A DNA stretch of 64,000 nucleotides, taken from positions 224,001 to 288,000 of the forward strand of contig CAWJGT010000003.1 of assembly GCA_963842525.1 (NCBI GenBank). Reading direction: 5' to 3'. The notes under the pieces are model-generated. The model worked only from the letters and a program-made list of their open reading frames with translations, did not search any database and had not been told where the DNA came from. The translations under genes and the position numbers were made by a program. Source of the DNA: an uncultured Holophagales bacterium. GTDB lineage: Bacteria > Acidobacteriota > Thermoanaerobaculia > Multivoradales > UBA5704. This document shows, one piece after another, positions 20,233 through 48,551 of the stretch (the first letter of the stretch is position 1; the number at the start of each line of letters is the position of its first letter).

Positions 20233-20238
20233 TCCACG

Positions 20239-25510: not shown

Positions 25511-26994
<1,484 letters not shown>

Positions 26995-27028
26995 GATCTC
27001 AATCCGGTATGATTTCTGGCGGAGCTCC

Positions 27029-27634
27029 ATGTTCCTCCAGGACATAAGAAACGGCCGCGGCGACACCCCCAAGCTCGACGAGGAGCTCCAGCGCCTCTTC
27101 GACCGGTACTTCCGTTCCATCGTCCATTTCTTCCTGAACCGGGGTCTCGCGCGGGAAGAGGCGCTCGATCTCACCCAGGAGACGTTTCTTCGGGTCTATA
27201 GAAGCCTGCAGGGGTTCCGCGGGGAGGCCGGCGTCCAGACCTGGCTCTTCCGGATCGCGACGAACCTCTGGAACAATGAGGTGCGCCGGCGGAAGGCCGA
27301 GAAGCGGGAGGGATGGGAGGTCTCGCTCGAAGGTGTGGTCGAGGGAGGGCATCCCGTCCGGGCGGACCGCCACTTCGACGGCTGGTCGGAGCCTGCCGGT
27401 CCGCTCGATTCGATGCTGGACGACGAGCGGCGGCAGATGTTGCGCGAGTCCCTGGACGAGCTTCCCCCGCAGATGCGGCGCTGCGTCCTGCTGCGCATCG
27501 ACCAGAACCTGAAGTACCGCGAGATCGCCGGCGTGATGCAGGTCTCGATCGAGACGGTGAAGTCCCAGCTCTCCCAGGCCCGGGACCGGCTGGAGCGGAA
27601 GCTGGGCAGTTATTTCGATCCTGTGGACGTCTGA
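27029..27634 (+). CDS. ECF sigma-70 factor
   Basis: DLTQETFLRVY, TWLFRIATN, region 4 YREIAGVMQVSIETVKSQLSQAR. Confidence 0.92.
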   Translation: MFLQDIRNGRGDTPKLDEELQRLFDRYFRSIVHFFLNRGLAREEALDLTQETFLRVYRSLQGFRGEAGVQTWLFRIATNLWNNEVRRRKAEKREGWEVSLEGVVEGGHPVRADRHFDGWSEPAGPLDSMLDDERRQMLRESLDELPPQMRRCVLLRIDQNLKYREIAGVMQVSIETVKSQLSQARDRLERKLGSYFDPVDV

Positions 27635-27649: not shown

Positions 27650-28417
27650 GTGGTGGACAACGAGAAGGACCTGAAGATCGGCGTCCGCGCCCTGGCGGCG
27701 GAGGCGCGGCGCAGCCTGGAGCACCCTCTCCCTGAGGAGCTGCTCGACTACCAGGCGGGCGACCTGCGGGAGGCGGAGAGGGAGCGCATCCAGGAGCACC
27801 TGGCCCTCTGCCCGGGCTGCGTGCGGGCGCTGCTGGATCTCGAAGCCTTTCCCGATGTCGAGCCCGTCCGGCCCGAGGACCGGCTTACCGACGCCGAGCT
27901 GTCCCACGAGTGGCAGCGGTTCCGGCAGGCCGTGGCGCCGCTTCCCGCCGCGGAGAGGCCCCGCGTCTCGCATCCCGTTCTCGCTCTCGCGGCGGTCCTG
28001 CTGCTCGCGGTCGTGGGCCTCTCCTTCTGGGTCCTGCGATTGCGGGGCGAGGTGCGCGATCTGTCCGCCCCTCAGGCCGGCATCCTGGTCGCCGATCTGG
28101 TTCCGCGGGATGAGGCGGTCGAGCGGGCAGAGGGCGATGGAGAGGTGGTCCGCGTGCCGGGTTGGGCGGACCGCGTCGTCCTGATCCTCAACCTGGCCGA
28201 TCCCGTGACCCATCCCGCGTACCGGGTGGAGATCGCGCAGGACGGCCGGGAGGTCTGGCGCCGCGCGGGGATCCGGCGTAGCGCGGACGGCACCTTCGCT
28301 CTGGAGGTTCCACGGCGGCTCCTGCCCGCGGGCCGGTACCGCATCCGGCTCTTCGGGATCGAGGGCGGCGCCGAGCTGCCGGTGGCGGAGTACCGGGTCC
28401 GGATCGAGCCCGTGTAG
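27650..28417 (+). CDS. zf-HC2 zinc-finger anti-sigma factor, membrane anchored
   Basis: HLALCPGC motif, TM ALAAVLLLAVVGLSFWVL, follows ECF sigma. Confidence 0.85.
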   Translation: MVDNEKDLKIGVRALAAEARRSLEHPLPEELLDYQAGDLREAERERIQEHLALCPGCVRALLDLEAFPDVEPVRPEDRLTDAELSHEWQRFRQAVAPLPAAERPRVSHPVLALAAVLLLAVVGLSFWVLRLRGEVRDLSAPQAGILVADLVPRDEAVERAEGDGEVVRVPGWADRVVLILNLADPVTHPAYRVEIAQDGREVWRRAGIRRSADGTFALEVPRRLLPAGRYRIRLFGIEGGAELPVAEYRVRIEPV

Positions 28418-29985: not shown

Positions 29986-30717
29986 TCAGCCGCCGGAGCG
30001 CCCTTCGAGCTCGCGCCGGAGCCGCTGCAACTCCTCTTCAAGGGCGCGCCGGGCCGTGGCCTCTCCGGCGGCTCGTGCTTCCGCGGCCTGAGCCTGCGAT
30101 TCCGCAGCTTGGCGCGCCTCGGCTTCTGCGGCTCGGGCCGCTTCGAGCTCATCGTCCCACAGGAGGGGCTCGCCCGTGGCGGTGTCGACCAGCCGCAGAC
30201 GATTGCCCTCGGGCCGCAGCGTCAGGCCCGTCGTCCGGCTGAGCAGCGAGCCGTCGAGATGCCGCGGGATCGGCTGATAGAGCCCGTTCTTGAGGCAAAG
30301 GCCTTGCAGCCGGGGCCGCAGGTATTCCTCATAGGGATCGAAAAGAAAGTACTCTTCAACCCCGATCTCCTGGTAGATCCTCTTCTTCTTGGTCTGGTCC
30401 TTCGACGCGGTCTTGCGGGACGTGACCTCGATCACCAGGCTCGGGGGACACTCTTCCCAGAGCAGGTAGTTCGGCCGTGGCCATTTCTCCACTCCCTTGG
30501 CCAGCAGCACGTCCGGGGCAATGGCCGCCTTCGGGTCGCCCTGTCGATAGCAGAGGAACAGATTGCCTCCCACCCACACGTCCGGCACGGTGGCATACCG
30601 GCGCTTCAGCGCGCCAATGCTGTCCGTCATCACCTCGCGGTGCAGCGTGGTCTCGGCCATGGGCTGGCCGTCGGAGGTGGGATACTCGATCGCCTTCTCG
30701 AGTGGAATCGCGGCCAT
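29986..30717 (-). CDS. Uma2 (DUF820) family PD-(D/E)xK endonuclease-like protein
   Basis: YPTSDGQPMAET, APDVL, PSLVIEVTS, GVEEYFLFDP, coiled-coil tail. Confidence 0.9.
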   Translation of the reverse strand: MAAIPLEKAIEYPTSDGQPMAETTLHREVMTDSIGALKRRYATVPDVWVGGNLFLCYRQGDPKAAIAPDVLLAKGVEKWPRPNYLLWEECPPSLVIEVTSRKTASKDQTKKKRIYQEIGVEEYFLFDPYEEYLRPRLQGLCLKNGLYQPIPRHLDGSLLSRTTGLTLRPEGNRLRLVDTATGEPLLWDDELEAARAAEAEARQAAESQAQAAEARAAGEATARRALEEELQRLRRELEGRSGG

Positions 30718-30939
30718 GGGTGCCTTCCTTTCCCCGACGGGTTGCAGCATCAGAGCACAACACCCTCCGGGGCGCAACGTCTCGCTGTTTCAGGGTAGCA
30801 CGGCAGGGCGTGGAAATGAACCCTCACTAATGGGGGTGAAACACCCTCTTGGGAAGCCTCCAAGAACCCCATGTGCGCGTCCGGCCGCCCCTGGCGGTGG
30901 GCCGTCCGGCTTGTTACGATGGGCTGAACAGGTGCCCAG

Positions 30940-33792
30940 ATGAGCCGGCCCTCGCCTTCACTGGCTGCCGCCTTGACGGTGCTCGCCGTCCTGTCCGTCC
31001 TCCTTGCGGTGGCGGTCCCGCAACCCCGTACGAGCCGGGGCGGTGCGGTCCACTCCTACGGCATCCTCCTGCGTGCCGGAGAGTTCCTCCACGTCGCCGT
31101 CGACCAGCTCGGGGTCGACCTGACCGCCTCTCTCGTCGATCCGGCGGGACGGGAGATCCTCACCGTGGACAGCCCGACCGGCGACCGGGGACCGGAGTCG
31201 CTCGTTGTGATCGCCCGCCGGCCGGGGACCCACGTCCTCGAAGTCCGTGCCCTGGAGGCCGGGGATGCAGGACGCTACGCCGTGCGGATCGTGGCGCGGC
31301 GTCCTGCCACTGGCCTGGACCGGAGCCGGGCGGAGGCGGCGAGGCTCTACGGGATCGGCGAGCGCAGGCGCATCGCGGGGGGCACCGCATCTCTGCGGTC
31401 AGCACGCGATGCCTACGAGGCGGCGCTCGGTAGATGGCGCCGTCTCGGAGACCTTGCCCAGGAGACCGTGGCGCTGCGGCGGATTGCCGAGGCCGATTTC
31501 GTGCTGGGGGACCTGCGAGCCGCCCGGGATCACCGGCAGCAGGCCCTCGGCCTCTGCCGCCGTCTGGGCGACGCGCGCCAGGAGGCCGCAGTCCTCCTCG
31601 ATCTGGGGGTCGCCCAGCGCCTGCTCGGGGACCTGCGCTCGGCGGAGGCCTCCTACGAGCTGGCCCTCCACATCGCCCGCGAGCTCGGCGACCGCTCGAC
31701 CGAGGCCTGGGCCTTCAACAACCTCGGGAAGCTCTACGACAACGGGTCGGAGCCCCAGAAGGCGCTGGACGCTTATGAGAGGGCCCTGGCGCTCTGGCGG
31801 GACCTGGGCGACCGCTCCCGCGAGGCTACGGCCTTGCACAACCTCGCAACGGTCTACAGCCTGATGGGGCGCCTGCCCGAGGCGCTCGACCTCCTCGGGC
31901 AGGAGCTGTCGCTGCGGCGGGCTGTGCAGGACTCGCGGGGCGAGGCCGCCACGTTGATGTCCATCGGCTGGGTCCACACCCTGGCAGGCGATCCGCAGCG
32001 GGCGATGCCTCTCTACGACGAGGCGATCCGCCGCTATCGCGGGCTGGGCGATCTGCGGGGCTTGGCCGCGGTCCTCGACCGGCGCGGCACCGCCCTGGCC
32101 CGGCTCGGCAGGTTGCCGGACGCCCTGGCCTCCTACCGCCGGGCTCTCGCCATCTTCCGGTCCACCGGCGAGCCCGGGAGCGAGGCTCACACCCTGGCCA
32201 ACGTGGGGTGGATCCACGACGCGCTCGGCGATCCGCGGGCCGCCCTGGCCTGCCAGGAGCGGGCCCTCGGGCTGTTCCGCCGCCTGGGCGACCGCCATGC
32301 CGAGGCGGAGACCCTGCTGGCCGTGGCGCGGGCCGAGCGCCGGCGCGGCCGCCTGGACCCGGCGCGCTCCCGCATCGAGGAGGCGCTCCGGCTCCTGGAA
32401 GCCCTGCGCGGCGAGCCGCGCAGCCCGGAGCTGCGCACCTCGTATGTCGCCGTCCGCTACGACTTCTTCGAGCTTGCCATCGACCTCCTCATGGACCTCC
32501 ACCGGCGCGATCCGCGGCAGGGCTTCGACGCCCGGGCCTTCGAGGTCAGCGAGCGCGCCCGGGCACGCAGCCTGATGGAGGAGATGGCCGCGGCGCGCTC
32601 GCGGCAGCAACCCGGCGCGGACGATCACCCAGCGCCGGAGCCGCTCCGTCTGGAGGGGGTCCAGAGCCTCCTCGATCCGGACACGCTCCTCCTGGAGATC
32701 GCGCTCGGCGAGCCGGCGAGCCATCTGTGGCTCGTGAGCCGGGACGGTCTGATCTCCCGGCGGCTCCCCGGCCGGGCGGCCCTGGAGGCGCAGGCGCAAA
32801 GGGTCCGCGATCTGCTGCCGCGCAGCCACCGCCGGGGCGTCCGCCGGCAGGCCGACCTGGAGGCCGCCGCCCTCGGGCGGACCCTGCTCGGACCGGTGGT
32901 CGACCAGATCGGGAGCCGCCGCCTGGTGATCGTGGCCGACGGTGCCCTCCTGGGTGTCCCCTTCGCCGCCCTGCCCATTCCCGACGGACCGGCGGCCGGC
33001 CGGCCGCTCCTGGCCGACCATGAGGTGGTCCAGCTTCCCTCCGCCTCCGTGCTCGGCCTCCTGCGCCGCCAGATGGCGAGCCGCCGGCCGCCGCCCCGCA
33101 CCCTCGCGGTGGTGGCGGACCCGGTCTTCACCGCGGACGACCCGCGCCTGCGGCGAGGCGACGTCCGGCTTGCCGCCCTGCCGGCTCTCGCGCGGCTTCC
33201 CTTCGCCGGCAGAGAGGCGGAAGCGCTCCTGCGCCTGGTGCCGGCCGAGGACCGGCTTGCCGCGCTCGGCTTCGCCGCCAGCCGGGAGACCGTGCTGGGC
33301 GGGGGGCTGGCCGATTACCGCATCGTCCACTTCGCCACCCACGCCTTCCTCGATGCCGGGCACCCCGAGCTGTCGGGGCTCGCCCTCTCCCGCTTCGACC
33401 CGGGCGGACGGCCGCGGGAAGGCGATCTGCGCGCCTGGGAGATCTACGGCCTCGATCTGCCGGCCGACCTGGTGGTGCTGAGCGCCTGCCGCACGGCGCT
33501 GGGCCGCCACGTGCCCGGCGAGGGCCTGATGGGCCTCACCCGCGCCTTCCTCCATGCCGGCGCCGGCCGCGTTCTGGTGAGCCTCTGGAACGTCAACGAC
33601 GAGGCCACGGCCGAGCTGATGAGTCACTTCTACCGCAACCTGCTGGAGCGCGGTGTCCGCGGCGTCCGCGGTGTCCGCGGCGTCCCGGCCGGCCGCGCCC
33701 TGCGCGAGGCCCAGCTCGCGCTGCGCAGCGATCCCCGTTGGGAGGCGCCCTACTACTGGGCGGGCTTCACGCTGCAGGGAGATTGGAGGTGA
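30940..33792 (+). CDS. TPR + CHAT (caspase-like) protease with N-terminal signal/PPC-like domain
   Basis: Many TPRs (EAWAFNNLG, EATALHNLA); CHAT VHFATH, LVVLSACRT, SLWNVND, PYYWAGF. Confidence 0.92.
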   Translation: MSRPSPSLAAALTVLAVLSVLLAVAVPQPRTSRGGAVHSYGILLRAGEFLHVAVDQLGVDLTASLVDPAGREILTVDSPTGDRGPESLVVIARRPGTHVLEVRALEAGDAGRYAVRIVARRPATGLDRSRAEAARLYGIGERRRIAGGTASLRSARDAYEAALGRWRRLGDLAQETVALRRIAEADFVLGDLRAARDHRQQALGLCRRLGDARQEAAVLLDLGVAQRLLGDLRSAEASYELALHIARELGDRSTEAWAFNNLGKLYDNGSEPQKALDAYERALALWRDLGDRSREATALHNLATVYSLMGRLPEALDLLGQELSLRRAVQDSRGEAATLMSIGWVHTLAGDPQRAMPLYDEAIRRYRGLGDLRGLAAVLDRRGTALARLGRLPDALASYRRALAIFRSTGEPGSEAHTLANVGWIHDALGDPRAALACQERALGLFRRLGDRHAEAETLLAVARAERRRGRLDPARSRIEEALRLLEALRGEPRSPELRTSYVAVRYDFFELAIDLLMDLHRRDPRQGFDARAFEVSERARARSLMEEMAAARSRQQPGADDHPAPEPLRLEGVQSLLDPDTLLLEIALGEPASHLWLVSRDGLISRRLPGRAALEAQAQRVRDLLPRSHRRGVRRQADLEAAALGRTLLGPVVDQIGSRRLVIVADGALLGVPFAALPIPDGPAAGRPLLADHEVVQLPSASVLGLLRRQMASRRPPPRTLAVVADPVFTADDPRLRRGDVRLAALPALARLPFAGREAEALLRLVPAEDRLAALGFAASRETVLGGGLADYRIVHFATHAFLDAGHPELSGLALSRFDPGGRPREGDLRAWEIYGLDLPADLVVLSACRTALGRHVPGEGLMGLTRAFLHAGAGRVLVSLWNVNDEATAELMSHFYRNLLERGVRGVRGVRGVPAGRALREAQLALRSDPRWEAPYYWAGFTLQGDWR

Positions 33793-33872
33793 TCTGAACA
33801 AATCGCCCTTCCGCCGGGTCACTAGGGCCTGGACAGAGACGAACGAGATCGGCAACCGCCAAAGGAGGCAAG

Positions 33873-34007
33873 ATGAACCGCGAAGCATTCGGCCCCAACG
33901 TGCTCGGACCCGTCCATGAGTCCACTCCTCCGCCCGATGAGAACGACGGTTCCAAGACCGGTCGAGAGGTCCCGCCTGCCACGCCGCCGAAGCCTGGGCG
34001 GAGCTGA
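33873..34007 (+). CDS. Small Pro-rich ORF (44 aa) between CHAT and caspase genes
   Basis: Strong RBS AAAGGAGG; MNREAFGPNVLGPVHESTPPPDENDGSKTGREVPPATPPKPGRS*; below ORF-track cutoff. Confidence 0.5.
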   Translation: MNREAFGPNVLGPVHESTPPPDENDGSKTGREVPPATPPKPGRS

Positions 34008-34031
34008 TCCGGGCCTCTGGAGGAACCAACC

Positions 34032-36064
34032 ATGCCCGAGCCGCGCCGCAAGCATGCGCTCGTCATCGGCATTGACCGCTATCCCGGGATGGGCGAGAAG
34101 CTCCAGCTCCGGGGGTGCGTCAACGACGCCAAGCTCATCACGCAGGAGCTGTGCGGCCGGTTCGGGTTCCCTTCCAAGGACGTGACCGTCCTGAAGGACG
34201 AGGCGGCGACCCGGGACGGCATCCTGTCGGCGATGCGCGGGCTGCTGGAGCGGGTGGGCCGCGACGAGGTCGTGGTCGTCACCTACAGCGGCCATGGCTC
34301 ATGGATGCCCGATCCCGACGGCGACGAGCCGGACGGCCGCGACGAGACCATCGTCCCCTTCGACAGCGGCCGGGGGGACCACCCCTGCCGCGATATCCCC
34401 GACGACGAGATCCATGCCTGGCTGCTCGACCTGAGCGAGGTCACCCCCTACATCACCCTGATCTTCGACTCCTGCTTTTCGGGGGGGATCGTCCGCGACA
34501 CGTTCTCGGCGCGGACCCGCTGGGTGCCGCCCCACGACCGCCCGGTCGAAGCTGCCCGCCGCTTCCGGCCGCGCGCGCGGGGCCTGCGCTGTTCCCCGTC
34601 GCCGAAAGGTCCCAGCGGATGGCTCCCGCTTGAGCGAGCGCTATATGCTGCTTGCGGGCTGCCGCCACGACGAGTGCTCGCACGAGCATGCGGCCCGGCC
34701 GGAGAGATGGCGGGTGGCCTTCTACCACGGAGCGCTCACCTACTTCCTCTGGAAGGAGATGGACGAGGCATGCGCGGAGGATGAGCTATCGCGACATGTT
34801 CGAGCGTGCGAGCGGCCGGGTGACGGCCGGTTTCCCGCCAGCATCCACAGCTGGAAGGGGCGCGGGACCGCGGGCCGTTCGGCTCCCGCCTCTTCGCGCC
34901 CTCGCGCTTTCTGCCTGTTTGCGGTCGCCGGGGGGAGCGGATCACGATCGGCGGCGGGGCGGCGCACGGGCCTGACGGTCGGATCGGAGTGGGCGATCCA
35001 CCCCCAGGGGCGCCAAGGCCGCGGACGGGACTCCGCGCCTCGCTCTGGCCCGGGTCTGCCGGGTCGACGCCGTGCAGGCGGAGGCGAGATCCGTGGGGGA
35101 GGACGGCTCGTCGTCCCGTGCAGGCCGGGGGACCGGGCCTTCGAGCACGCCCACCAGTACGGTGAGATGCGGCTGGCCGTCGAGATCGACGCGCCGGAAG
35201 GTTCGCGGGAGGACCTGGCCCGGGCTGTCCATCGCTCGAGCCTGTTGCGCCTGGCGAAGAGGAGGGAAAGCGGCAGGCGAAGGTTACCTCCTCTCTCCGC
35301 GACAGCGGTGGAGCGAAGTGATCCCGTGCCGCAGCTCGGAACGGTCGCCGAGCCGGTATGGGCTGTTGTCGGGCAGGACGGCGATCTGCTGATGCCGGTG
35401 TGATCCCCGCTGGAGAGCCCGGCGCTCTCGGCCGGCTCGTCGACAACCTCAATGCCCGCGCCCGCTACGAGAACATCCTGCAGCTCGAAAATCACGATCC
35501 GGAGAGCCGGCTAAGGGGTGCATCCGTTTCCGCCTGCTGCGCCGGCAAGGCGAGAGATGGGAGCCGGCCGAGGGAGACTCCGCCGTCTTCGCCGAAGGGG
35601 AGAGACTGGCCCTGGAAGTCGAGAACCGGTGCGACGGAGCCGGTCTACATCAGCGTCCTGGACCTCGGCCTCTCCGGACGGGTCAGCCAGGTCTATCCTG
35701 TACGCGGCGCCCGCGAGCCGCTGGCGCCGGGCAGGACCCTGCAGGTCGGCGTACGGAAAGGCGAGGAGCTGGAGTTGTACATGCCCCGGGCCTTCCCGTT
35801 CACCGGCGACCCCGCGACCGCCGAAGGCACCGAGCACCTCAAGCTCTTCGCCACCACCGGCGAGGCCGACTTCGAGCTGCTGGAGCAGGGGGATACCGCG
35901 CCGTGCGCGCGACGCGCCAATCCGCGGACCCGCTGGCCGAGCTGCTGAGCGCGGCCCTGGCCGAGGACGCCATGCGCGAGATCCGGCCCACAGGCCCATG
36001 TCCCGGACGCCGACTGGACCACGGTGACGCGCCCGTTCCTCTGCGGCGGAGGAAAGGGTCGTGA
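34032..36064 (+). CDS. Metacaspase (peptidase C14) with C-terminal DUF4384-like domain; multiple frameshifts
   Basis: ALVIGIDRY, LRGCVNDA, YSGHGS, FDSCFSG, HGALTYFL; later frames PVYISVLDLGLSGRVSQVYP, EHLKLFAT; stop overlaps next GTG. Confidence 0.8.
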
Positions 36065-38949
36065 AGTACCGGGATTTCGTGGTGCAGATCGGGCCGCCGG
36101 CCGGAGAGGTCTTCCCGGTGCGGGTCCTGGAGTCGCCGGCGGGTGCCGGTTCCGGCGAGTCCGTATGCCTGAGATGGTGCCGGCGGGTTCGAGCAGCGGC
36201 GAGGGTGCGCGAGACGTGGCCGGGCCGCTGCACGGCGGCTCTCTGCCCGCGCCCGAGGAGATGGGACGGAGGCTCTTCGCGGCTCTCTTCACGGGCGAGA
36301 TCCGGGACCGCTACTACCAGAGCCGGGGTGGCATCGACGACGGCGAAGGTCTGCGCATCCAGATCCGCTGCGATCCGCGCCAGCCGGATCTCCTGCCGAT
36401 CCAGGCCCTGCCCTGGGAAGCTCCTCTTTCAATCCGACGCCCGCTGCTTTCTCGGCCTCGACCGCCGAACGCCGGTCGTCCGCTATCTGGATGTGCCCGC
36501 GCCGGTGGAGCCGGCACCCCTGCCGGAACGGCTGCGGATCCTTGCCGTCCTCACCGCGCCGCCCGCATCGCCGAACAGTCCGCTGCTCGACCTGGAGCGG
36601 GAGCGCCGCTGGATCGAGGAGGCCTGCGGCGCCCAGCCGCGCCTCGAGCTGACGATCCTGGAGCGACCCGATCCGCAGGCCCTCCGCGACGAGCTGCTGC
36701 GTGCGGTGTCTCGCCGGGAGCCCTACCACGTGCTCCACTTCGCGGGGCACGGCACCTTCGACGGCGAGCGCGGCGAGGGAGCGCTGCTCTTCGCGACCGC
36801 GGAGGGCGAGGCGCGGCCGTTGACAGGGGACGAGCTGGCGCTCCTGGTGCGCGGCACCGGCGGGCTGCGGCTGGCCGTCCTCAACGCCTGCCACAGCGGC
36901 AGGATGGGTGCGGAGCCGGACCAGGATGCCTTCGCCGGCGTGGCGGCGGCGCTGCTCCTGGGCGGCCTCCCCGCGGTGCTCGGCATGCGCCGGCCCATCC
37001 CGGACGACTCGGCCGTCGCTTTCAGCGCCACCCTCTACCGGCGCCTCGCGCTGGGCGAGCCGATCGACGCCGCGGTCACCGAGGCCCGCCTGGCCATCTA
37101 CCGCCGCGGCCGCCCGGCGGCGGAGTGGAGCACGCCGGTGCTCTTCCTGCGCGCCCCCGACGGCCGGCTCTTCGCGGGCGAGGAAGGCGGCGACGCTGCC
37201 GCGCTCGCCGGCTACCTGGGGCGCCTCCGCGAGGCCTGCGCCGCGGCGTTCGCGACCCAGCTCGTCCGGCCCGACCGCCTGTACGTACCGCAGTTCGCCG
37301 GCCCGCACGGTGGAGAGCCGGCCGCCGAGGTCGAGCTGCTTGGCGAGATGCTCGGCTTCTGGCAGGGCGAGCAGCCGCGGGTCGCGGTCCTCGGCAACTA
37401 TGGGATGGGCAAGAGCTATTTTGCCTGGAAGACCGTGCTCGATCAGGCCGAGCGCGCTGGCGGAGCGCGGGGCCGCATCCCCGTGCTCTTTCCGCTGCGC
37501 GACTTCAACTACGGGGCCGCCGAGGCTGCGGAGGGGCTGCGGCACGACCTGGTGGACCAGATCCTGGGCCATCTCCGGCGGCTCGACTTCCCGGTGGCGT
37601 CGCGGCGCGAGCTCGTGCGCTGGATCGAGGACGGCCGCATCGGCATCGTCCTCGACGGCTTGGACGAGCTGCAGATCCCCGGCAACGTCTCGTGGCGGAG
37701 CGTCCTCGCGCCCCTCGCCGCCATCCCCGGCGCGTGCTTCGCCGTCACCGCGCGCACGGCCTATGTGGGCGGCGCGGCGGAGCTCGACGGCTGGCGCGTC
37801 CTCCACCTCCTGGAATGGAGCGAGCGGGAGTGGCGGCGCTTCCTGGAGCTCCGGGAGGACCGGCTCGCCGCGGTCGGCGGCGTCGATGCCTTCCTTGCCC
37901 TGGTGGCGAACCGACCCCAGCTCTCCCAGCTCACCACGCGCCCCCTCTGGTGCGCCATGATCGCGGCGGTCGCCGACCGGATCGCCGGCCTGGAGGACCT
38001 GGATCTCCCCGGGCTCTACCAGGAGTTCTTCGACGAGGCTGTCCGGCGCCGCAAGCTGGCGCACCAGGTCCTGTCCGTCCCGTGGCGCTACTGCGCCATG
38101 GAGCGCTTCGCCGAGGAGTGCGTGCTCGAGCGCCGGTCGTCGCTGCACGAGCGCCAGCTCGTCGCCCTGCTGACCGCGCTCTTCGAAACCATCGGGGAGC
38201 CGCGGCTGCGCGAATACCTGGCGCAGGAGGCGAAGACGTACGCCTTCCTCAACTGCGATCCCTACCGCCACTACAGCTTCGGGCATGCCTCGTTCGAGGG
38301 CGATTTCCTGGCCGCGCGCATCGCCCGCCGGCTCGTCGGGGAGGCCACGGGGCGGCCGTCGGGGCCGCCGGAACGGGTCCCCGGGCGCGACGTCCTCCTG
38401 GCCTGGGGCCTCGACGAGGACCAGGTGACCTTCGCGGCCGGCATCCTTCAGGGCGACCGGATCCTCCGCTCCCTGGGGATGCTGGAGCCCGAGGACGAGG
38501 GCCATGCGCAGCTCTACGCCGCCGTCTCCGAGGACCTCCGGAAGCGCCTGGAGAGCGACGGCGAGCCGCCGCCGCTGCGGCGCAATCTTTTCCGCCTTTT
38601 GCTCGCGCTGTCGCGTGGCCGGCGGCGCCCGCGGCTGCGCGGCCTTCGCCTCGACGGCGTGGATCTGTCAGGCCTCGACCTGTCCGGCTGCGACTTCGAG
38701 AACGTGGGGTTTGAAGGGGCCAACCTCTCCGCGGCGCGCTTCGCGAACAGCCGGCTGGCGCGCTGCGTCTTCCATGGCGCGGTGATCGACGGCGCCGACT
38801 TCACGGGCGCCGATCTGGCCGGGGCCGATCTGCGCGGGGTCGACCTGCCGCAGGTCCCGCCGGTCCTCGCCGGCCTGCGCAACGCGGACAGGGCCCAATT
38901 GGACGCGCGGGAGCGCCGGATTTTCGCGCTCTCTGACCGGGAGGGTTGA
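36061..38949 (+). CDS. CHAT protease + NACHT/STAND NTPase + pentapeptide repeats
   Basis: VLHFAGHG and VLNACHS dyad; Walker A GNYGMGKS; Walker B IVLDGLDE; LTTRPL; YSFGHASF; C-terminal ADFTGADLAGADLRG; compensating frameshifts about 36165-36420. Confidence 0.85.
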   Translation: MKYRDFVVQIGPPAGEVFPVRVLESPAGAGSGESVCLRWCRRVRAAARVRETWPGRCTAALCPRPRRWDGGSSRLSSRARSGTATTRAGVASTTAKVCASRSAAIRASRISCRSRPCPGKLLFQSDARCFLGLDRRTPVVRYLDVPAPVEPAPLPERLRILAVLTAPPASPNSPLLDLERERRWIEEACGAQPRLELTILERPDPQALRDELLRAVSRREPYHVLHFAGHGTFDGERGEGALLFATAEGEARPLTGDELALLVRGTGGLRLAVLNACHSGRMGAEPDQDAFAGVAAALLLGGLPAVLGMRRPIPDDSAVAFSATLYRRLALGEPIDAAVTEARLAIYRRGRPAAEWSTPVLFLRAPDGRLFAGEEGGDAAALAGYLGRLREACAAAFATQLVRPDRLYVPQFAGPHGGEPAAEVELLGEMLGFWQGEQPRVAVLGNYGMGKSYFAWKTVLDQAERAGGARGRIPVLFPLRDFNYGAAEAAEGLRHDLVDQILGHLRRLDFPVASRRELVRWIEDGRIGIVLDGLDELQIPGNVSWRSVLAPLAAIPGACFAVTARTAYVGGAAELDGWRVLHLLEWSEREWRRFLELREDRLAAVGGVDAFLALVANRPQLSQLTTRPLWCAMIAAVADRIAGLEDLDLPGLYQEFFDEAVRRRKLAHQVLSVPWRYCAMERFAEECVLERRSSLHERQLVALLTALFETIGEPRLREYLAQEAKTYAFLNCDPYRHYSFGHASFEGDFLAARIARRLVGEATGRPSGPPERVPGRDVLLAWGLDEDQVTFAAGILQGDRILRSLGMLEPEDEGHAQLYAAVSEDLRKRLESDGEPPPLRRNLFRLLLALSRGRRRPRLRGLRLDGVDLSGLDLSGCDFENVGFEGANLSAARFANSRLARCVFHGAVIDGADFTGADLAGADLRGVDLPQVPPVLAGLRNADRAQLDARERRIFALSDREG

Positions 38950-38952
38950 GCC

Positions 38953-40527
38953 GTGTGGGAGCCGCTGCTCGAACGCGAGATCGAGAGCTGCACGTCGCCG
39001 GGGTGGTGGCGCGGGAGCGGCCAGCGGACGGTGTTCTGTCTCCTCGACCCACCCCGCCACGCCCTGCCCGCGGAGGCCTACCGCAAGGCGCAGGAGAGCA
39101 CAGTGCAGGTGTTCGCCGCGGTCCAGCAGTACCGCGCCGCTCCGCTCCCCATCGGCCTGCAGGACGATTTCTGGACGGTGGCGCAGAGGGATCTCGGCCC
39201 CGCCTTCGATCGTCCCCTCGCAGCCGATACTGCCGGCTACATCCAGCGCGGCGGCACCGGCATCGTGGCGGCCATCGCCGCGGCCAAGCCGCGTCCGCCG
39301 GTCCTGCGGCTGGAGAGCGAAGGCTTCGTCGCGGCCTACCAGCGCCTCCAGCAGGAGGCCATCTCGTTCATGGAGGATGCGGCGCCGTTCTTCGGCGCCC
39401 TGGTCGGCGCCTGGCGCGAGGCCGAGGCGCGGGTCGCCACGCCCGGGGTCCGCGAGCTGCGAGCGGCGCTGGAGGGCTTCCGGTCGCTCCAGGGAGGGCT
39501 GAGCGGCTCCCTGCGGGGGATCGCCGGCCTCGCCCGGTCCCTGGGCGTGGACCTGGAGACGCCGGCCTACCGGCCGATTGCCCTGTACGAGAAGATCGCC
39601 GAGCTCGAAGAGGGGCTCGACGAAGCCGCCACCAACCGTGACAAGAAGGCGCTGGAAGACGAGATCCGGGCACGCGTAAAGCCGCAGGCCGTCGAGCCGC
39701 GCGCCGCCGTGGAGCTCGCCCTCTACGAGCTGCTCGACCGCCACGAGGACGACGAGGACTACCGCGAGACCATCGCGGCCTTCCGCGAGCTGCTCGCACA
39801 GCCGGTCCTCCCGCCGCTGCCTGACTGGCTCCCCCGGTCGGTCGCCGAGAAGGTCGAGGGCTTCAGCGGCGACTACCTCGTCCAGGCGATCCGTATCCGG
39901 CCGGAGGATCAGCACCGGCCGCACAAGGGGCACGGCGAGCTGGTCTCGCGCCTCCTGGAGCTGGCCATCGTCCTGGGCATCGATCCGGCGCGCTATGCGC
40001 GGCTGCAGCGATTCGTCTACATCTCCAACCTCAACCACAGCATTCACGCGCTCAGCGGCTACGCTGCCGGCCCGGCGCTCCTGGCCGCGGTCGAAAAGCT
40101 GGGCGAGACCCTGCTCGCCCGCCGCGCCTCGGACCGCGAGAGGCGGCTCCTGGAGCAGGACCGGATGGCTCGATTCCTCGCCGAGCTGGGGAGGTTCCAC
40201 CTGGTCTACGACGCCGGCCTGCGGCGGGTGGTCCTGGGCTTCGACCTCGCCGGCTTCTGCCGCCTGCTGGCCGATCTGGGCGCCCGGCTCCCTGCCGGCT
40301 GGGAGGAGCGGGCGGCCGATCTCGATCGCCGGTTCGCGGCGGTGCGCGAGCTCTACCAGCGGACCCTCCTGCGCGGCAAGGACCTGGCAGGCAGCCTGCT
40401 CGCCGGCGCGGCGCAGCTCGGCGCGAGCGCCGCGATCCTCTACTGCGACGGCTACCTGAACCAGATCCTGGCCCCCTGGCTCCAGGGGCGCGATATCTCC
40501 TACTCCTTTCTCGTGCCGAAATGGTGA
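38953..40527 (+). CDS. Hypothetical protein, possibly a degenerate TIKI/TraB/ChaN-like fold
   Basis: 524-aa ORF 3 nt after the NACHT gene; C-terminus ..LYQRTLLR..AAILYCDGYL..LQGRDISYSFLVP resembles that fold's terminal motif (low certainty). Confidence 0.55.
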   Translation: MWEPLLEREIESCTSPGWWRGSGQRTVFCLLDPPRHALPAEAYRKAQESTVQVFAAVQQYRAAPLPIGLQDDFWTVAQRDLGPAFDRPLAADTAGYIQRGGTGIVAAIAAAKPRPPVLRLESEGFVAAYQRLQQEAISFMEDAAPFFGALVGAWREAEARVATPGVRELRAALEGFRSLQGGLSGSLRGIAGLARSLGVDLETPAYRPIALYEKIAELEEGLDEAATNRDKKALEDEIRARVKPQAVEPRAAVELALYELLDRHEDDEDYRETIAAFRELLAQPVLPPLPDWLPRSVAEKVEGFSGDYLVQAIRIRPEDQHRPHKGHGELVSRLLELAIVLGIDPARYARLQRFVYISNLNHSIHALSGYAAGPALLAAVEKLGETLLARRASDRERRLLEQDRMARFLAELGRFHLVYDAGLRRVVLGFDLAGFCRLLADLGARLPAGWEERAADLDRRFAAVRELYQRTLLRGKDLAGSLLAGAAQLGASAAILYCDGYLNQILAPWLQGRDISYSFLVPKW

Positions 40528-40540
40528 AAGGAGGAACGGC

Positions 40541-41206
40541 GTGGCAGATCTTTCCGATGTTCCCGCAGCCGCTGCCGAGACGGTGGAGAAGAGCTGCCGG
40601 GGGAACCGCTACTGCTCGTTCACCGGACCCTTTCACCCGGAGCACCTGGCGGGGACCGGCCGCGGCCGGCCGCACGTAGTGGGGCGCTGCTACAGCTTCG
40701 GCTGCGGTGCCTACGTCTGCGACCGCTGCGCGCACCGCCGGCCCCTGCCCGGGCCGGACGGCCAGGCTTCCGGCCGGCTCGAAATGCTGTGCTGCCCCTT
40801 TGACGGCGAGCCTCTCGGGCGCGGCGACACGTGGCTGGTCCTCAGCCCGGAGGGGCGGGTCCGTCTTCCCTTAACTGCTGAACGTGGAGGGTCAAAGATC
40901 ATGCTTCTCACCCGGCAGCACTTCATCGAAATCGGACAGCAGTACAAGGTCTCCGAGGGCGAGGCGGCCACCATGTTCAACGTCTATGAGAGCGGCTTCC
41001 GCGAAACGGCACCGCCACACGCGCCGATGGAGGTCAATGAAGGCGTCCTCCAGACAATCCATCTCATCATGGTGCTGGTCTCCGCCTACAAGAGCGGTGG
41101 GATCAGCGACGAGGAGCTGGCCCGGGGCCTTCAGAAAGCGTTTGCTGACCGGCAAAAAGCAGCGCAGCCGAAGCGCGGCTTTTTTGCACGCCTCTTCGGA
41201 AGGTGA
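40541..41206 (+). CDS. Hypothetical Cys-rich (zinc-finger-like) protein
   Basis: RBS AAAGGAGG; CRGNRYC...CYSFGCGAYVCDRC...CCP; amphipathic tail RGFFARLFGR. Confidence 0.65.
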   Translation: MADLSDVPAAAAETVEKSCRGNRYCSFTGPFHPEHLAGTGRGRPHVVGRCYSFGCGAYVCDRCAHRRPLPGPDGQASGRLEMLCCPFDGEPLGRGDTWLVLSPEGRVRLPLTAERGGSKIMLLTRQHFIEIGQQYKVSEGEAATMFNVYESGFRETAPPHAPMEVNEGVLQTIHLIMVLVSAYKSGGISDEELARGLQKAFADRQKAAQPKRGFFARLFGR

Positions 41207-41252
41207 GCCCCGTTCGCCTGAAACCTCCGCATCCTCCCGCCGTATCTCCCTC

Positions 41253-41299
41253 TTGACGACAGATGTAGTCACCGGGTAGGATGACTACAGACGTAGGCA
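41253..41299 (+). promoter_or_regulatory. Promoter with two BlaI/CopY-type operator palindromes
   Basis: TTGACG-18nt-TAGGAT overlapping TGACGACAgaTGTAGTCA and TGACTACAgaCGTAGGCA (TACA-N2-TGTA box). Confidence 0.75.
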
Positions 41300-41323
41300 G
41301 ATGTGGAGAACGACGGAGGACGG

Positions 41324-41710
41324 ATGAACCCCAGATCGATTGGAGACCAGGAGCTGGCGGTGCTGCGGTACGTCGCCGAGCAGGGGCCGACGACGGTGGG
41401 CCAGGTGGCCGAAGGGTTCGGCGAGCCGCGGGGGCTGGCGCGCTCGACGGTGCTCACGATGATGGAGCGGCTGCGCCAGAAGGGGCATCTGGACCGCGAG
41501 CCGGTGGACGGTGTGTTCCGGTACTTCTCGCCGGTGCCCGAAGGAGAGCTTCTGCGCGGCGCGGTGCGGACGTTCGTGGAGAAGACCCTCGACGGGTCCG
41601 TGTCGCCGTTCGTCGCCTATCTCTCGGAGACGGCGGAGGTCTCGGAGAGTGAGCTGGCGGAGCTCGAGGATCTTGTGGCCCGGCTCAAGTCGAAAAGGAA
41701 GGAGGGTTGA
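41324..41710 (+). CDS. BlaI/MecI/CopY family transcriptional repressor
   Basis: ELAVLRYV, ARSTVLTMMERLRQKG, FRYFSP, FVEKTLDGS. Confidence 0.92.
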   Translation: MNPRSIGDQELAVLRYVAEQGPTTVGQVAEGFGEPRGLARSTVLTMMERLRQKGHLDREPVDGVFRYFSPVPEGELLRGAVRTFVEKTLDGSVSPFVAYLSETAEVSESELAELEDLVARLKSKRKEG

Positions 41711-41711
41711 G

Positions 41712-43685
41712 ATGGACGGCTCGGCAACCCTGATCGGCCTGATCGGCCGTGCCTCGCTCCAGGGGGCGATCGCGATTGTCGCGGTGTGGGCCGTCTGCCG
41801 GCTCTTCCCGCGCCTGCCTGCCTCGCTGCGTTGCGGGCTCTGGTGGCTCGCCTGCCTGAAAGTGGTCCTCGGGCTCGTCTGGACCAACCCGGTACCGCTG
41901 CCGGTTCTGCCGGCCGCCGAGCGGCCACCCGTGACGCTCGTCGCCACGGCTCCCATGGCCGAGGCGGGGCCGGCTGCGGCCCACCCCTCGGCACCGCTCG
42001 ACGAGGCGGCGCCCTTCCCCTGGACGCTGGTACTGGTGGGGCTCTGGGCCGCCGGTCTCGTTGGACATCTCGCCTGGACCACCGGCCAGCTCCGGCGGGT
42101 TCGGGCAATCGTCCGGGAGGCCGAGCCCGTCAAGGAACGCTGGGTCGTGGACCTCTTCGCAGGGCTCCGGGAAGAGCCCGCATCACCCCGCGCGCCGAGG
42201 TGCTTTCCGCAGAGGTCGAGACGCCGCAGGTCCTCGGTCTGTTCCGGCCGGGGTCTTGCTTCCCCGGCGCACGCTCTCCCGCCTCTCTCCCGCAGAGCTG
42301 GCGATGACCCTCTGCCATGAGCTGCTCCATGTGCGTCGCGGCGACCTGTGGCTCGGCTGGGTGCCGGCGCTGGCGCAGCGGCTGTTCTTCTTTCACCCCC
42401 TCGCGCGGCTCGCGGTGCGCGAGTATGCGTTGGCCCGCGAGGCCGCCTGCGATGCGGAGGTGCTGCGGGTCCTCGATCCCGCTCCTGACGCCTATGGCCG
42501 GCTTCTCTTGAGATTGGGCGTGGCGCCTCGGGTCCCGCGGCTGGCCGCGGCGGGCGCCGCGCCCTCGGTTGAAACTCTGAAAAGGAGACTGATGATGCTG
42601 CAACAAGCTTCGGATAGAAAGCGCCTTCATCCCGCCTGGTGGGGGCTGGTCGTCCTCGTGGCTCTGGTGGGCCTGATCCCGTTCCAGATGGTGGCCCAGG
42701 GCCCGGAGGAGGAGGTCGCTCCGGTGGCCGCGGTCGAGCCTGTGCCTGAGATCGCGCCTGTCCCCGAAGGCGCGCCGGTCCCCGTGGTCGAGCCTGCGCC
42801 GGAGGCCCTGCCTGTCCCTGCGGAAAGCTCTCCCCGCGCCCGAGGCCCTGCCGGCCGTGGCGGGCGTGCCCGGTGCAGCAGCGCCTGTGCCCGCTGTGGC
42901 GGGCATGCCCGGTGTGGCGAGCGTGCCTGGTGTGCCATCCCTGCCCGTCCTCGCCGCCGCCGTGCCAGGCGCCTATCCGGCACCTCATGCGAAGGGGGCC
43001 GGGCAGTGCCGCCGGCGCCTCCGCGGCCGCCCGCGCCGCCAACTCCACCCAGAGCGCCGAGGGCGCGGCACGCTTCGTGGACCGACGACGGCGATGATTC
43101 CTATGTCGTCCGGCTGGATGGCAACCATCACATCATGAGCGGTTCCAGCTCGGAGTCTAAAAAAGGCCGGCAAGCTCCTGGTCTGCTCCGGGATCTGGTT
43201 CGAGCGCGACGGCAAGGAGTACGTCATCCGCGATGCGGCGACCGTCCGGCAGGTCGAGGGTGCTCTTCAAGCCCCAGACTCAGCTCGGCGAGAAGCAGGC
43301 CGGCCTGGGTGAGAAGCAAGCCGGCCTGGGAGAGAAGCAGGCGAAGATCGGTGCCCAGCAGGCCAAGCTCGGCGCCAAGATGGCTGGTCTCGGCGCGAAG
43401 CAGGCCTCTCTCGCCGCCCAGCAGGCGAGCCGGGGAGGGGAGGAGGATGACGATCTCGAAGAGAAGATGGAGGATCTTGGCCGCCAGATGGAGGCACTCG
43501 GCCGCCAGATGGAATAAGCTCGGCGAGCCCATGGAGGCAGCTCGGGCGCCAGCAGGAGAAGCTCGGAGAGCAGCAGGAGGCGCTGGGTGGGCAGCAGGAG
43601 AAGCTGGCTGGAGCAGGCCGAGCGCCAGCTCCGGACCATCCTGGACAAGGCGCTCGCGAGCGGTCTGGCCCAGGAAGTGAAGTAA
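41712..43685 (+). CDS. M56 (BlaR1/MecR1-like) membrane metallopeptidase with Pro-rich linker and coiled-coil tail; multiple frameshifts
   Basis: TM helices, HELLHVRRGD, FFFHPL, REAACDAEV, LKRRL; QAGLGEK repeats; follows the BlaI-type gene. Confidence 0.82.
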
Positions 43686-43686
43686 A

Positions 43687-43927
43687 CCTCACCCCCTGTC
43701 CCCCTCTCCCATCGCACTCCCCCCACCGGGAGAGGGGGAACGCGTCTGATTGCCTGCGGCATTTCGGGGGAGGGTTGGAGTGGCGGAGAGGCGTTCGGGT
43801 GCAGCATGCTGTGCCCCTACAGCCTCCACTGGCAGGCAGCTCCGGTAAAAACCGCGAGGCTCCGCCTACGTCCCCCCTCTCCCGGTGCGGGGAGGGGGGC
43901 GACGGGAGAGGGGGCCAGGGGGTGAGG
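43687..43927. repeat. REP-like inverted pair enclosing a GTAG-type palindrome
   Basis: Arms 43687-43740 and 43871-43927; internal GTAGGGGCACAGCATGCTGCACCC on minus strand (43797-43820). Confidence 0.8.
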
Positions 43928-45162
43928 TCACGGCCACAGCCACCAGATCGCCCCCCCCCCCGCCAGCGCCGCCCGAAGAGGACCGCCACCCGCCCGAAGA
44001 GAGCCCGGGTACCGAGGACGGCGACGATCCCCGCCTTGAAGACGAGGTTGGAGAGCACGGCGAGGAGGATCGCCCGCCAGCCGTCGCCCGCGGGGATGCG
44101 GCCGGCGTCGACCAGCCGGGCGGTCGAGAGGGTGAGGGCGTCGACGTCGGTCAGCCCGGAGAGCGCGGCCACTGTGTAGAGGCCGGCGGTGCCGAAGCGG
44201 TCGCGGGCGAAGGCGACGGCGAGGAGCACCGCGGCGTAGAGGGCCCCGAAGAAGAGGGCCGACCTGAGCTGCGCCGGGTTCCCCGGTTCGGGGGGCTCCG
44301 CGGCGTGGTCCCGGTCGGCGAGCCAGGCGACGACCGAAAGCACCGCCGCCACGCCGAACATGGCCCCGATCGGCGGCGCCAGGGCGAGGATCTGACCGGG
44401 GCCACGACCGCGATCTCGACCAGCACGCGGGCGAAAACGACGGTCGAGGCGATCATCACCACCAGGGCCGCCAGCCGGGAGAGCTTCCGGCGCCTCCTTC
44501 GTCCGGCGGGCGTAGCTGACCGTGGTGGCCGTGCTCGAGATGAGGCCGCCGAGGACCCCGGCGAGCACCGTCCCCGCCCCGCGCCGAACAGCTTGTACGC
44601 CACATACCCCGCCAGCGACAGCCCGACGATCAGCACCACCATCCACCAGATCTGGTAGGGATTGAGCACCCCATAGGGCCCAATGTCCCGGTCCGGCAGG
44701 ATCGGCAGGATGACCAGGGCAGAAGGACGAGCTGCATGATCGCCCGGATGTCCTGCTCCCCCATCCGCCCCACGAACCGGTGGAGGGGCTCCTTCAGATG
44801 AAAAGGACCGCAACCGCCCCGCCCAGGACGACCGCGAGCGTCAGCGGCGCGACGACCGTCCGGGCGCCGACGCCGTACATGACGAGAGCCGCGAACTCCG
44901 TCGTCTGCCCCGGATCGGCCTCCCCCTCGCGCAGCCGCACCAGGTTCCCCGACATCACCAGCCCCGCCACCGCCAGCAACCCCACCGCCACCACCCACCC
45001 GCCGAACGCCCGTCCGAGCAGCGCCGCCACCGCCCCGAGCAGCGTGATCAGGGCGAACGTGCGGATCCCCGCGATGGCGGAGTCGATCCGCTCCCGCTGC
45101 AGCCCGACCAGGAGCCCGAGCCCGAGGGCGACGGCGAGCTGGAGGAAAGGCTGCGGGATCAA
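43928..45162 (-). CDS. MgtC/SapB + DUF4010 membrane protein; multiple frameshifts
   Basis: [54 protein letters not shown] across frames. Confidence 0.8.
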
Positions 45163-45273
45163 TTCAAATAAGGTCTCTCCTGCCGGGCGGGCGGTCGGGT
45201 ACGGACGGACGGACGAGGGGATCGTGCGCGAGGCGCTGGAGGGAGAGGGACCTGCTCCGATCTGCTCCGGGAG

Positions 45274-45520
45274 TCGGACAGTTCGCGCCACGGATCGGAC
45301 GGTTTGCGCCAGCGGTGGGACGGTCCATGAAGCGGGTCGGACAGTCCGCCCCGCAGGTCGGACAGATTGTACCGCGGAGCGGACAGTTCGCGCCGAAGGT
45401 CGGACAGTTCCCGCCGCGGGGTGACCGCCATCATATCCGGCGTGAACCGTCCGACCCACGGAGCAAACCGTCCGACCTGCTTTGGTGGCGCCCGCGAGAT
45501 CGGCGCGAACTGTCCGTTCC
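45274..45520. repeat. 21-nt-period array that reverses orientation
   Basis: Seven units starting (T/G)CGGAC(A/G)G at 45274-45420, then inverted units (ACCGTCCGAC, AACTGTCCG). Confidence 0.75.
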
Positions 45521-45639
45521 GGTCTGGTGGCCACAGCAAAACCGGAGCGAGGTTCCGACCTGGTCTGGTGGTCGTCCCAAAATCGGGTCAACCGTTCGCC
45601 GCCCCGAACGTCGCCGTAGAGACGCCTGGTCCGGGACCA

Positions 45640-45990
45640 CGAACCTCACGGCGAAGCCAAGCGAGAACGAGAAACCATTGGCGAAGATCGTCCCGGCCAG
45701 GGAAAAGGAAAACGAGCCGCACGCCCTTTCCGGGTTCCAAGGAGGCCCGAGGACGACGATCCGTTCTTCTCAACGATTGAGGAGATCGTGGAAAGCCGTT
45801 TCGAGCACAGGCCGAGAGTGCTGGGAGAAACCTCGGCCGCCCGCCAGAGGACGTCTACGCGGTGAACGGCTATCTGCTGGACACCAACGTTCTTTCGGAG
45901 CTCCCGCCAAAAGCCCCTGCCTCCAAGTTCTGGAGCGCATCCGCCGGGTTCCTGCGCTGACCACATCATCGATTTGTGTGCTGGCTTCCG
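45640..45990 (+). pseudogene. Degraded type II toxin-antitoxin module (Phd/YefM-like antitoxin + VapC PIN fragment)
   Basis: KPLAKIVP antitoxin-like motif; GTG 45862 MNGYLLDTNVLSEL...TTSSICV PIN N-terminus truncated at a REP element. Confidence 0.6.
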
Positions 45991-45998
45991 TCATGGAG

Positions 45999-48445: not shown

Positions 48446-48551
48446 GGGGGGAGCAACCTCGCAGGAGGGACGGTGCTGGGCCGTTCCTCCTGGGCTCACC
48501 CCATCTTCAATTTTCTCGCCTTGTGCTCAGGCCGACTTTCATCACAGGTCG

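Follow-up and report, generated by a model that had tools for sequence, protein, structure and literature searches.

Probably two neighbouring systems in one protease gene row of an uncultured Holophagales bacterium: a TPR-CHAT/caspase module and a candidate NLR-like NACHT-pentapeptide system with two accessory genes

We analyzed a window of 64,000 nucleotides (nt) from the genome of an uncultured Holophagales bacterium (GenBank assembly GCA_963842525.1, contig CAWJGT010000003.1, positions 224,001 to 288,000), in which positions 30940-41206 carry five + strand genes in series, labeled A-B-C-D-E. We hold with moderate confidence that this block represents two neighbouring systems. A sigma factor, its anti-sigma factor and genes A and B would make up the first, genes C, D and E an NLR-like conflict system, and the reading-frame breaks found in B and C would most likely be consensus errors. 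Two modules are preferred over a single cascade because A and B occur without C-D-E in all five loci of relatives that were inspected, while C and D occur without A-B in two further loci (L020 and L029). The genes concerned are as follows.

26975-27634, + strand: extracytoplasmic function (ECF) sigma factor (Pfam Sigma70_r2, Sigma70_r4_2, Sigma70_ECF)
27650-28417, + strand: zf-HC2 anti-sigma factor, single-pass transmembrane, 255 residues (Pfam zf-HC2; HLALCPGC in the translation)
30940-33792, + strand: gene A, TPR-CHAT protein, 950 residues (Pfam CHAT, E=9.2e-68, plus several TPR families); frame intact
34032-36064, + strand: gene B, Peptidase_C14 caspase with a long C-terminal extension (Pfam E=1.1e-18, residues 6-169 of the first piece of its open reading frame (ORF))
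36061-38949, + strand: gene C, CHAT, NACHT NTPase, helical region and pentapeptide repeats, 962 residues (Pfam)
38953-40527, + strand: gene D, no known family, 524 residues; conserved partner of the NACHT-pentapeptide scaffold
40541-41206, + strand: gene E, no known family, 221 residues; Cys-rich N-terminus and helical C-terminus

Families were assigned to the ORFs of the window with Pfam, PADLOC-DB v2 and NCBIfam. A preliminary description of this DNA had reported TPR-CHAT, caspase and CHAT-NACHT-pentapeptide genes in a row, followed by two coupled genes without known family, and this layout is borne out by the positions and common strand given above. It had also noted His/Cys motifs in all three proteases, and these are indeed legible: ..HFATHAF.. 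and ..LSACRT.. in A, ..YSGHG.. and ..DSCFSG.. in B, ..FAGHG.. and ..NACHSG.. in C. Each protein thus combines such motifs with a clan CD domain match (CHAT in A and C, Peptidase_C14 in B), and by analogy with other clan CD proteases we take the motifs to be catalytic dyads. The GC content of the five-gene block is approximately 0.69-0.75.

Gene C shows a tripartite arrangement of N-terminal effector, central NTPase and C-terminal repeat region. Pfam places CHAT at residues 173-352 (1.7e-32), NACHT at 441-569 and Pentapeptide at 866-929 (2.4e-14). The NTPase has a Walker A motif, GNYGMGK451S, and a Walker B motif, IVLD532GLD535E536; Walker A residues G445, G448, G450 and K451 and the Walker B D532-G-L-D535 are invariant in 22 family sequences, and E536 is conserved in at least 90% of them. 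The architecture supports C as a putative bacterial NLR-like STAND protein with an N-terminal caspase-fold effector. We used the part of C that follows the effector (residues 381-962, hereafter the scaffold) as a query against 5.8 billion proteins. The search gave 186 hits, of which 22 clusters span 92% or more of the query and the remainder match the pentapeptide repeats only; many members of the scaffold family carry a precomputed PF05729 annotation. The N-terminal domains of the 22 clusters are distributed as follows.

TIR: 12 of 22 clusters
CHAT: 4 of 22, one of them the copy on contig C15 of the same genome
Metallophosphatase (PF00149): 3 of 22
APH/kinase-like with PF19974: 1 of 22
Mrr_cat: 1 of 22, at 26% identity
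No annotated N-terminal effector: 1 of 22

The NACHT-pentapeptide scaffold therefore recurs with swapped N-terminal effectors of five output kinds. One such exchange is seen in the TIR-NACHT-pentapeptide protein of locus L020 (742 residues), to which residues 381-952 of C are 48% identical over 578 residues. The scaffold is also rare. Only one of the 401 genomes sampled from the phylum, the window's own, contains it, the plasmid collection gave no match, and in a metagenome scan with the NACHT alignment only L028 and L029 proved to be genuine family loci, 30 further matches being distant NTPases. This rarity and patchiness, the swapping of effectors between relatives and the presence of a homologue in a STAND- and TIR-rich island (L020) fit a conflict or defence system. 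By comparison with these relatives, C-D-E would be a rare, horizontally distributed NLR-like system of the bNACHT type. The view of C as an NLR-like, defence-type protein, put forward in the preliminary description, is accordingly retained as regards STAND architecture, rarity, effector swap and island context; the three-protease cascade attached to it is not.

Gene D is the most constant companion of the scaffold. Its stop-to-start distances are short: the stop codon of C lies 3 nt ahead of the GTG of D, with GGGAGGG upstream, and the stop codon of D lies 13 nt ahead of the GTG of E, with AAGGAGG upstream; both upstream stretches are purine-rich and resemble ribosome-binding sites. Among 5.8e9 proteins, D has full-length relatives in three other clusters (86, 48 and 34% identity), and a five-sequence profile retrieved 22 of 1.84e9 representatives at E<=1e-30, several of them fragments. 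Within the order (201 genomes), D was found in its own genome only; two other matches span 74 residues (E ~3e-4) and lie inside longer frames. No match to D was found in the plasmid or phage collections or in a metagenome scan with the D alignment, and in the ESM Atlas it is represented by unnamed clusters only, with Omnitrophota as the commonest taxon (score 0.92). D adjoins a NACHT-pentapeptide gene in the window, on C15, in L020 and in L029. L020 (record CAVQAM010000010.1) comes from the sole other species genome with D, where D follows the TIR-NACHT-pentapeptide gene by 12 nt in the same direction. In the metagenome locus L029, a 510-residue D homologue is convergent with the NACHT-pentapeptide gene and overlaps its 3' end. 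D is thus retained across effector swaps and a changed gene orientation. Four more pairings were inferred from the equal size of the longest recorded contig.

Contig size 12686: scaffold P0009, D P0002, E P0006
Contig size 4669: scaffold P0013, D P0004
Contig size 22958: scaffold P0017, D P0129
Contig size 27790: scaffold P0024, D P0136

The AF2 model of D (pLDDT 74.6, pTM 0.54) has a small alpha/beta core formed by N- and C-terminal strands and split by a helical insert of ~370 residues. A Foldseek search of the Protein Data Bank (PDB) with this model returned nothing at E<=0.001, the only rows being coiled-coil and dynein proteins. Relaxed Pfam searches with all five D sequences revealed no consistent family, and a PDB sequence-profile search gave nothing significant, its best match being a HigA antitoxin (E=0.038, profile positions 285-350). 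The best-conserved patch of D, ..LLELA.VLGID.., lies at residues ~285-363 (window ~39805-40041) and attracts several sub-significant matches to HigA-type antitoxin helix-turn-helix domains in the PDB (E 0.04-1), a weak hint of a helix-turn-helix-like element there. Weak matches to the D profile (P0148-P0274, E 1e-13 to 1e-4) occur in the first ~600 residues of proteins of up to ~6000 residues, and one very long D-like protein is recorded from Omnitrophota; Pfam assigned no family to any of the 11 remote D-like proteins scanned (514-2669 residues).

Gene E is kept less constantly. Its database relatives are P0006 (76% identity) and P0007 (70% over 47% of the query). In L020, the gene that follows D encodes 683 residues and begins with an E-type Cys-rich domain (E matches its residues 53-269 at 31% identity, E=3e-29); its C-terminal half resembles the post-NTPase region of the scaffold and the pentapeptide repeats (25%, 361 columns). 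Apart from the window, three or more loci or contigs retain the E-type domain. Seven Cys residues are invariant in four sequences, and the Cys-rich N-terminal domain is a probable zinc binder on this pattern. The AF2 model of E is poor (pLDDT 50): the N-terminal 116 residues are unmodelled and helices at 113-208 are moderately confident. The ESM Atlas offered leads below 0.9 only.

The L020 locus (1-21569) contains, besides these genes, a DUF4062-AAA_16 gene followed by an ISL3 transposase gene, an HTH_NWD1 protein, a TIR protein adjoining an nSTAND5 NTPase and a DUF4062/NACHT gene. Its 574-residue gene (13495-15219), without assigned family, lies after the long E-form gene; we considered whether this fourth gene of the cluster is paralogous to D, which an hhalign probability of 9.8% led us to reject.

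The second line of evidence concerns the other half of the block. A DNA search with gene B gave matches in 22 of 41 related genomes, its own included. We inspected five of the best matches, on long contigs only (G023, G011, G024, G019 and G002); G008 and G018 were left out for a short contig or little flanking context. A TPR-CHAT gene lies upstream of the caspase gene on the same strand in all five loci. The two genes directly adjoin each other in L022, L023, L024 and L025, and in L021 they are separated by an ECF sigma gene and two ORFs. In locus L025, from the same genus, the stretch that starts with the ECF sigma gene, includes TPR-CHAT and ends with the caspase is collinear with the window, and the similarity goes no further; the sigma factors of the two loci are 62% identical in amino acid sequence. 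Such conservation suggests that the sigma, anti-sigma, A and B genes are one module inherited within this bacterial family. The anti-sigma factor has a hydrophobic segment at residues ~110-128 (KD19 2.72), and A has a strongly hydrophobic N-terminus (residues 8-26, KD19 2.79), a predicted signal or anchor, with no such segment in B-E. The module is probably one of envelope-signal-regulated proteolysis. The intact C-terminus of B, as read from C15, has a sub-threshold match to DUF4384 (E=9e-4, 19.7 bits versus a cut-off of 27).

Several further observations concern this module. At least 10 further CHAT regions paralogous to A occur in the same genome (66-73% DNA identity). A Uma2-family (putative restriction endonuclease-like) gene on the - strand (29986-30789) separates gene A from the anti-sigma gene; four or more paralogues of it occur in the genome (71-73% DNA identity), and it is missing from the collinear locus L025. 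In L022 (G011:C1:1061000-1080000), the TPR-CHAT and caspase pair is flanked by a CHAT-SAVED gene (14441-17080) and a gene for a RAMP-domain protein (6500-7894), which hints at a link of the pair to cyclic-oligonucleotide or type III CRISPR signalling. The window itself has a second TPR-CHAT gene (50544-53669, - strand, 1041 residues) within 50544-56018, divergent from a weak sigma-like ORF (54078-54878) and a zf-HC2 anti-sigma gene (54972-56018).

How C-D-E might work can be proposed by analogy with related switches. The helical and pentapeptide beta-helix C-terminal region of C would act as sensor and its NACHT NTPase as oligomerisation switch, with the CHAT protease at the N-terminus as effector. 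A trigger, most likely phage-derived, would be sensed by the C-terminal region and would lead to NTP-dependent assembly of C; induced proximity would then activate the CHAT domains, which would cleave host or phage proteins, with growth arrest or abortive infection as the outcome. D and, less constantly, E would be accessory subunits of the sensor/switch scaffold, acting as co-sensor, bait or negative regulator. We place them on the sensing or regulating side because D accompanies TIR as well as CHAT versions of the scaffold. A dedicated CHAT substrate would hardly be expected to persist whatever the chemistry of the effector, and from the same pattern D and E would more plausibly serve the sensor/switch part than act as CHAT substrates. 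The anti-phage role, the activation mechanism and the roles of D and E are what we infer here. A more specific version, in which D is a dedicated, linked bait or co-receptor and the NLR-like scaffold watches the state of D instead of a phage molecule (a guard-guardee pair in one operon), is unlikely. On this reading, D may be the free-standing form of a module that weak profile matches locate in the N-terminal ~600 residues of giant uncharacterised proteins, some of them recorded from Omnitrophota. If the reading were true, one sensing unit (the scaffold and D, with or without E) would have been plugged onto protease, NADase, phosphoesterase, kinase-like and nuclease outputs.

The preliminary description had noted frameshifts, and they are present in the assembly. 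Frameshift-aware alignment to the intact homologues of L003 (713 residues), L024 and L025 locates ~10-13 breaks in B, between 34536 and 36043; alignment to the intact 956-residue orthologue P0009 locates exactly two in C, near 36160 and 36420. Plots of GC content at third codon positions (GC3) agree: the coding frame of B switches repeatedly past ~34540, and C leaves and re-enters its frame near the 5' end. As a control, the same routine found no internal break in A relative to the L025 orthologue. When the breaks are read through, no in-frame stop appears in B (~660 codons, 321/660 identical to the L025 protein) or in C (955 codons, 832/955 identical to P0009). Both breaks in C fall where the orthologue implies GAGCTC (..GEL.., ..WELL..), the window being one base short or having one extra.

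The genome has a second copy of the region on contig C15, all 15,433 bases of which align to window positions 35551-50949 (98.1%, 208 mismatches, 73 gap openings). Relative to the window, C15 has +1 and +2 bases at two other GAGCTC sites (~37783 and ~37848), a pair that garbles ~22 residues of a conserved domain over which the window is consistent with P0009. A two-base difference separates the copies at the first break of C, where both are out of frame. Toward the end of B, the final ~500 nt form a single frame up to the stop in C15 and contain three to four breaks in the window. Where the two copies diverge little, no 6-mer is more often discordant than GAGCTC (4/16 versus 2.05% overall), and 16 of the 73 indels lie within 8 nt of AGCT, compared with 7.2% of random positions. 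Intact GAGCTC is absent from the 6.3 kb made up by the broken genes B, BlaR1 and MgtC/DUF4010, compared with a frequency of 1.27 per kb over the initial 30 kb of the window. The discordance at GAGCTC could be due to a modified-base motif that interferes with base calling.

Two neighbouring genes of the same error-rich zone are also broken. A BlaI-type repressor gene (41297-41710) is followed by a BlaR1-type M56 peptidase gene split into two ORFs (41511-42320 and 42061-43680), and an MgtC/DUF4010 gene on the - strand (43267-45591) is split into three. Long genes are whole in the first 30 kb and past 56 kb. C15 and the window form a mosaic, with identical stretches of 1-2 kb, substitutions at ~44000-45200 often spaced by three bases, and an indel-rich part at 45200-47600; C15 appears to represent another strain or haplotype that was placed in the same genome bin. 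Genome-wide, a different palindrome, CAGCTG, is nearly absent (287 observed versus 4783 expected from 5-mer/4-mer statistics, ratio 0.06), while the observed/expected ratio of GAGCTC is 0.68; the depletion of CAGCTG could reflect restriction avoidance or systematic miscalling of a modified motif.

Alternatively, the frameshifts could be genuine and the block, or at least B and C, a decaying remnant made up of pseudogenes, the outcome named in the preliminary description as fatal to its proposal. The number of breaks in B and C, the break near 36420 common to both contigs and the unbroken state of A, D and E in or beside the same zone speak for decay. Nevertheless, we judge it unlikely. The breaks sit at would-be GAGCTC sites or homopolymers, and the two copies break at different sites, including the compensated +1/+2 pair seen in a conserved domain of C15 only. 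The 3' end of B is intact in C15, both genes can be read through to their full length free of stops, and unrelated neighbouring genes are broken too. The GAGCTC sites, the differing sites in C15, the intact 3' end of B and the broken neighbours together make consensus errors of the assembly, not gene decay, the most likely origin of the breaks. We are largely confident of this for C and reasonably so for B, where the break density is much higher and the first kilobase of breaks lies beyond C15.

A further alternative accepts C-D-E as a unit and denies it an antiviral role: it could be a regulatory or developmental STAND switch, for example for stress-triggered regulated proteolysis or for telling self from non-self in a soil bacterium that lives socially. 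By NCBIfam, the CHAT domain of C is most like the HetF type and its repeats most like HetL/Alr5209-type pentapeptide proteins, all matches being far under the curated cut-offs. The surroundings are rich in signalling genes (three Ser/Thr kinase-PD40 genes, GGDEF and ECF pairs), and no canonical defence genes stand beside C-D-E in the window. However, the swapping of TIR, nuclease, phosphoesterase and protease effectors, the extreme patchiness and the TIR/STAND island of L020 are the usual signatures of conflict systems, and a DNA-binding output domain is absent. We therefore consider a purely regulatory role quite unlikely.

It is very improbable that all five genes form one operon with a proteolytic cascade, TPR-CHAT to caspase to CHAT-NACHT, acting on D and E, as had originally been suggested: the common strand, the short gaps from B onward and the lack of a convincing terminator between genes of the block (a promoter-like site was seen only past E) are outweighed by the separate occurrence of the two halves in L020-L025 and L029, by the persistence of D with TIR effectors and by the export- or anchor-type N-terminus of A, which argues for different compartments. 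C, D and E are tightly coupled; an operon of all five genes is not established, given the 239 nt between A and B and the comparative data that split the block.

Several points weigh against the two-system reading or parts of it. In the C15 reading, the stop of B overlaps the start of C (GTGA), which makes co-transcription of B with C-D-E probable in this genome, and B and C may be functionally linked. The breaks in B occur about once per 150-200 nt, with none in A, D and E, and those of the first 1 kb lie outside the C15 span; B may therefore really be in decay. The NACHT match of C (6.9e-6, 26.4 bits) is just below the Pfam cut-off of 26.7. PADLOC, proposed earlier as a check, recognized only the CHAT, TIR and metallophosphatase N-termini (as SAVED_CHAT, BovA, SAVED_TIR and PDC-S60), and none of its models matched the NACHT-pentapeptide part, D, E or the long form of E. 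Known defence genes do not flank C-D-E in the window, the neighbours being Uma2 and BlaI/BlaR1. The four further co-occurrences of D with the scaffold come from equal contig size alone, E is documented in four places only, and the functional reading of C-D-E draws on sequence comparison and analogy.

Elsewhere in the window, three consecutive Ser/Thr kinase genes with PD40 beta-propeller repeats (8545-11448, 11653-15708 and 16039-18693) are followed by a kinase-LanC-like gene (20233-22479) and a 401-residue gene without assigned family. GC content falls to 0.53-0.64 between 46 and 56 kb. The window contains no tRNA genes and hence no obvious integration site.

Two general points emerge. Genes with similar domains can stand in a row and yet belong to more than one system, and frame breaks clustered at one short palindrome, GAGCTC in this case, are a warning of assembly error, not gene decay. 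As for C-D-E itself, bacterial NLR relatives have mostly been studied as single-gene sensors, while this clade keeps one or two partners through effector swaps and changes in gene order. This makes it well suited to studying what accessory subunits contribute when an NLR-like switch senses its trigger or is held back, indirect recognition of the guard type being one example.

Among known folds, VIA-align related the D model to ChaN (2g5g, Z 8.2, 200 aligned residues, root-mean-square deviation 6.8, at the noise level of the tool, best Z 7-8) and, as marginal rows, to HopBA1 (5t09, Z 7.6) and erythromycin esterase (6xcq, Z 6.5). With these the D model would have in common an alpha/beta core with a helical insertion, at scores within the noise. 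Hydrolases of the EreA/ChaN/HopBA1-like superfamily use catalytic histidines, whereas D has no invariant histidine, and its membership would depend on marginal model matches.

The closest described analogue of the sigma/anti-sigma/A part is DdvS/DdvA of Myxococcus xanthus, described as an ECF sigma factor and a zinc-binding transmembrane anti-sigma factor with a periplasmic TPR-CHAT part (PMC11506125); this is a resemblance, not membership. In DdvA, TPR-CHAT is fused to the anti-sigma factor and is reported to have an incomplete His-Cys site (PMC11506125), whereas in the window the anti-sigma factor (255 residues) and TPR-CHAT (950 residues, both motifs present) are encoded by separate genes ~2.5 kb apart, with a caspase gene after. 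Gene A also has the TPR and CHAT architecture in common with Csx29, the TPR-CHAT protein of Craspase in type III-E CRISPR systems; no Cas7-11/gRAMP, RAMP or Cas family was found among the window ORFs scanned with Pfam.

For C-D-E, the nearest known relatives are the bNACHT proteins, described as antiphage relatives of NLRs whose effectors include caspase-type peptidases, TIR domains, calcineurin-like phosphoesterases, kinases and restriction endonucleases, and whose sensors include pentapeptide repeats (Kibby et al., 10.1101/2022.07.19.500537). Like C, they combine an effector, a NACHT NTPase and a C-terminal repeat sensor, and the effectors and pentapeptide sensors listed there are seen in the family of C. 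On the strength of that survey, C is a new member of this known NLR-related NACHT class. The tested bNACHT01 appears there not to be in an operon with other genes (10.1101/2022.07.19.500537), whereas D and E travel with the scaffold; another difference is that no PADLOC model fits the NTPase or sensor part of the C family, a clade known from sequence alone. Avs and other antiviral STAND NTPases likewise combine a STAND switch with swappable N-terminal effectors and a C-terminal sensor, which in Avs binds phage proteins (10.64898/2026.01.04.697583). The putative sensor of C differs in being a pentapeptide beta-helix and a helical region, not TPR, and accessory genes are present here. A search of a partial literature library brought up no account of D or E, or of accessory genes accompanying a NACHT-pentapeptide protein, although the supplementary tables of the bNACHT and STAND surveys might list the clade. 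On present comparisons, what appears to be new is the pair of conserved accessory genes, D and E, on a NACHT-pentapeptide clade.

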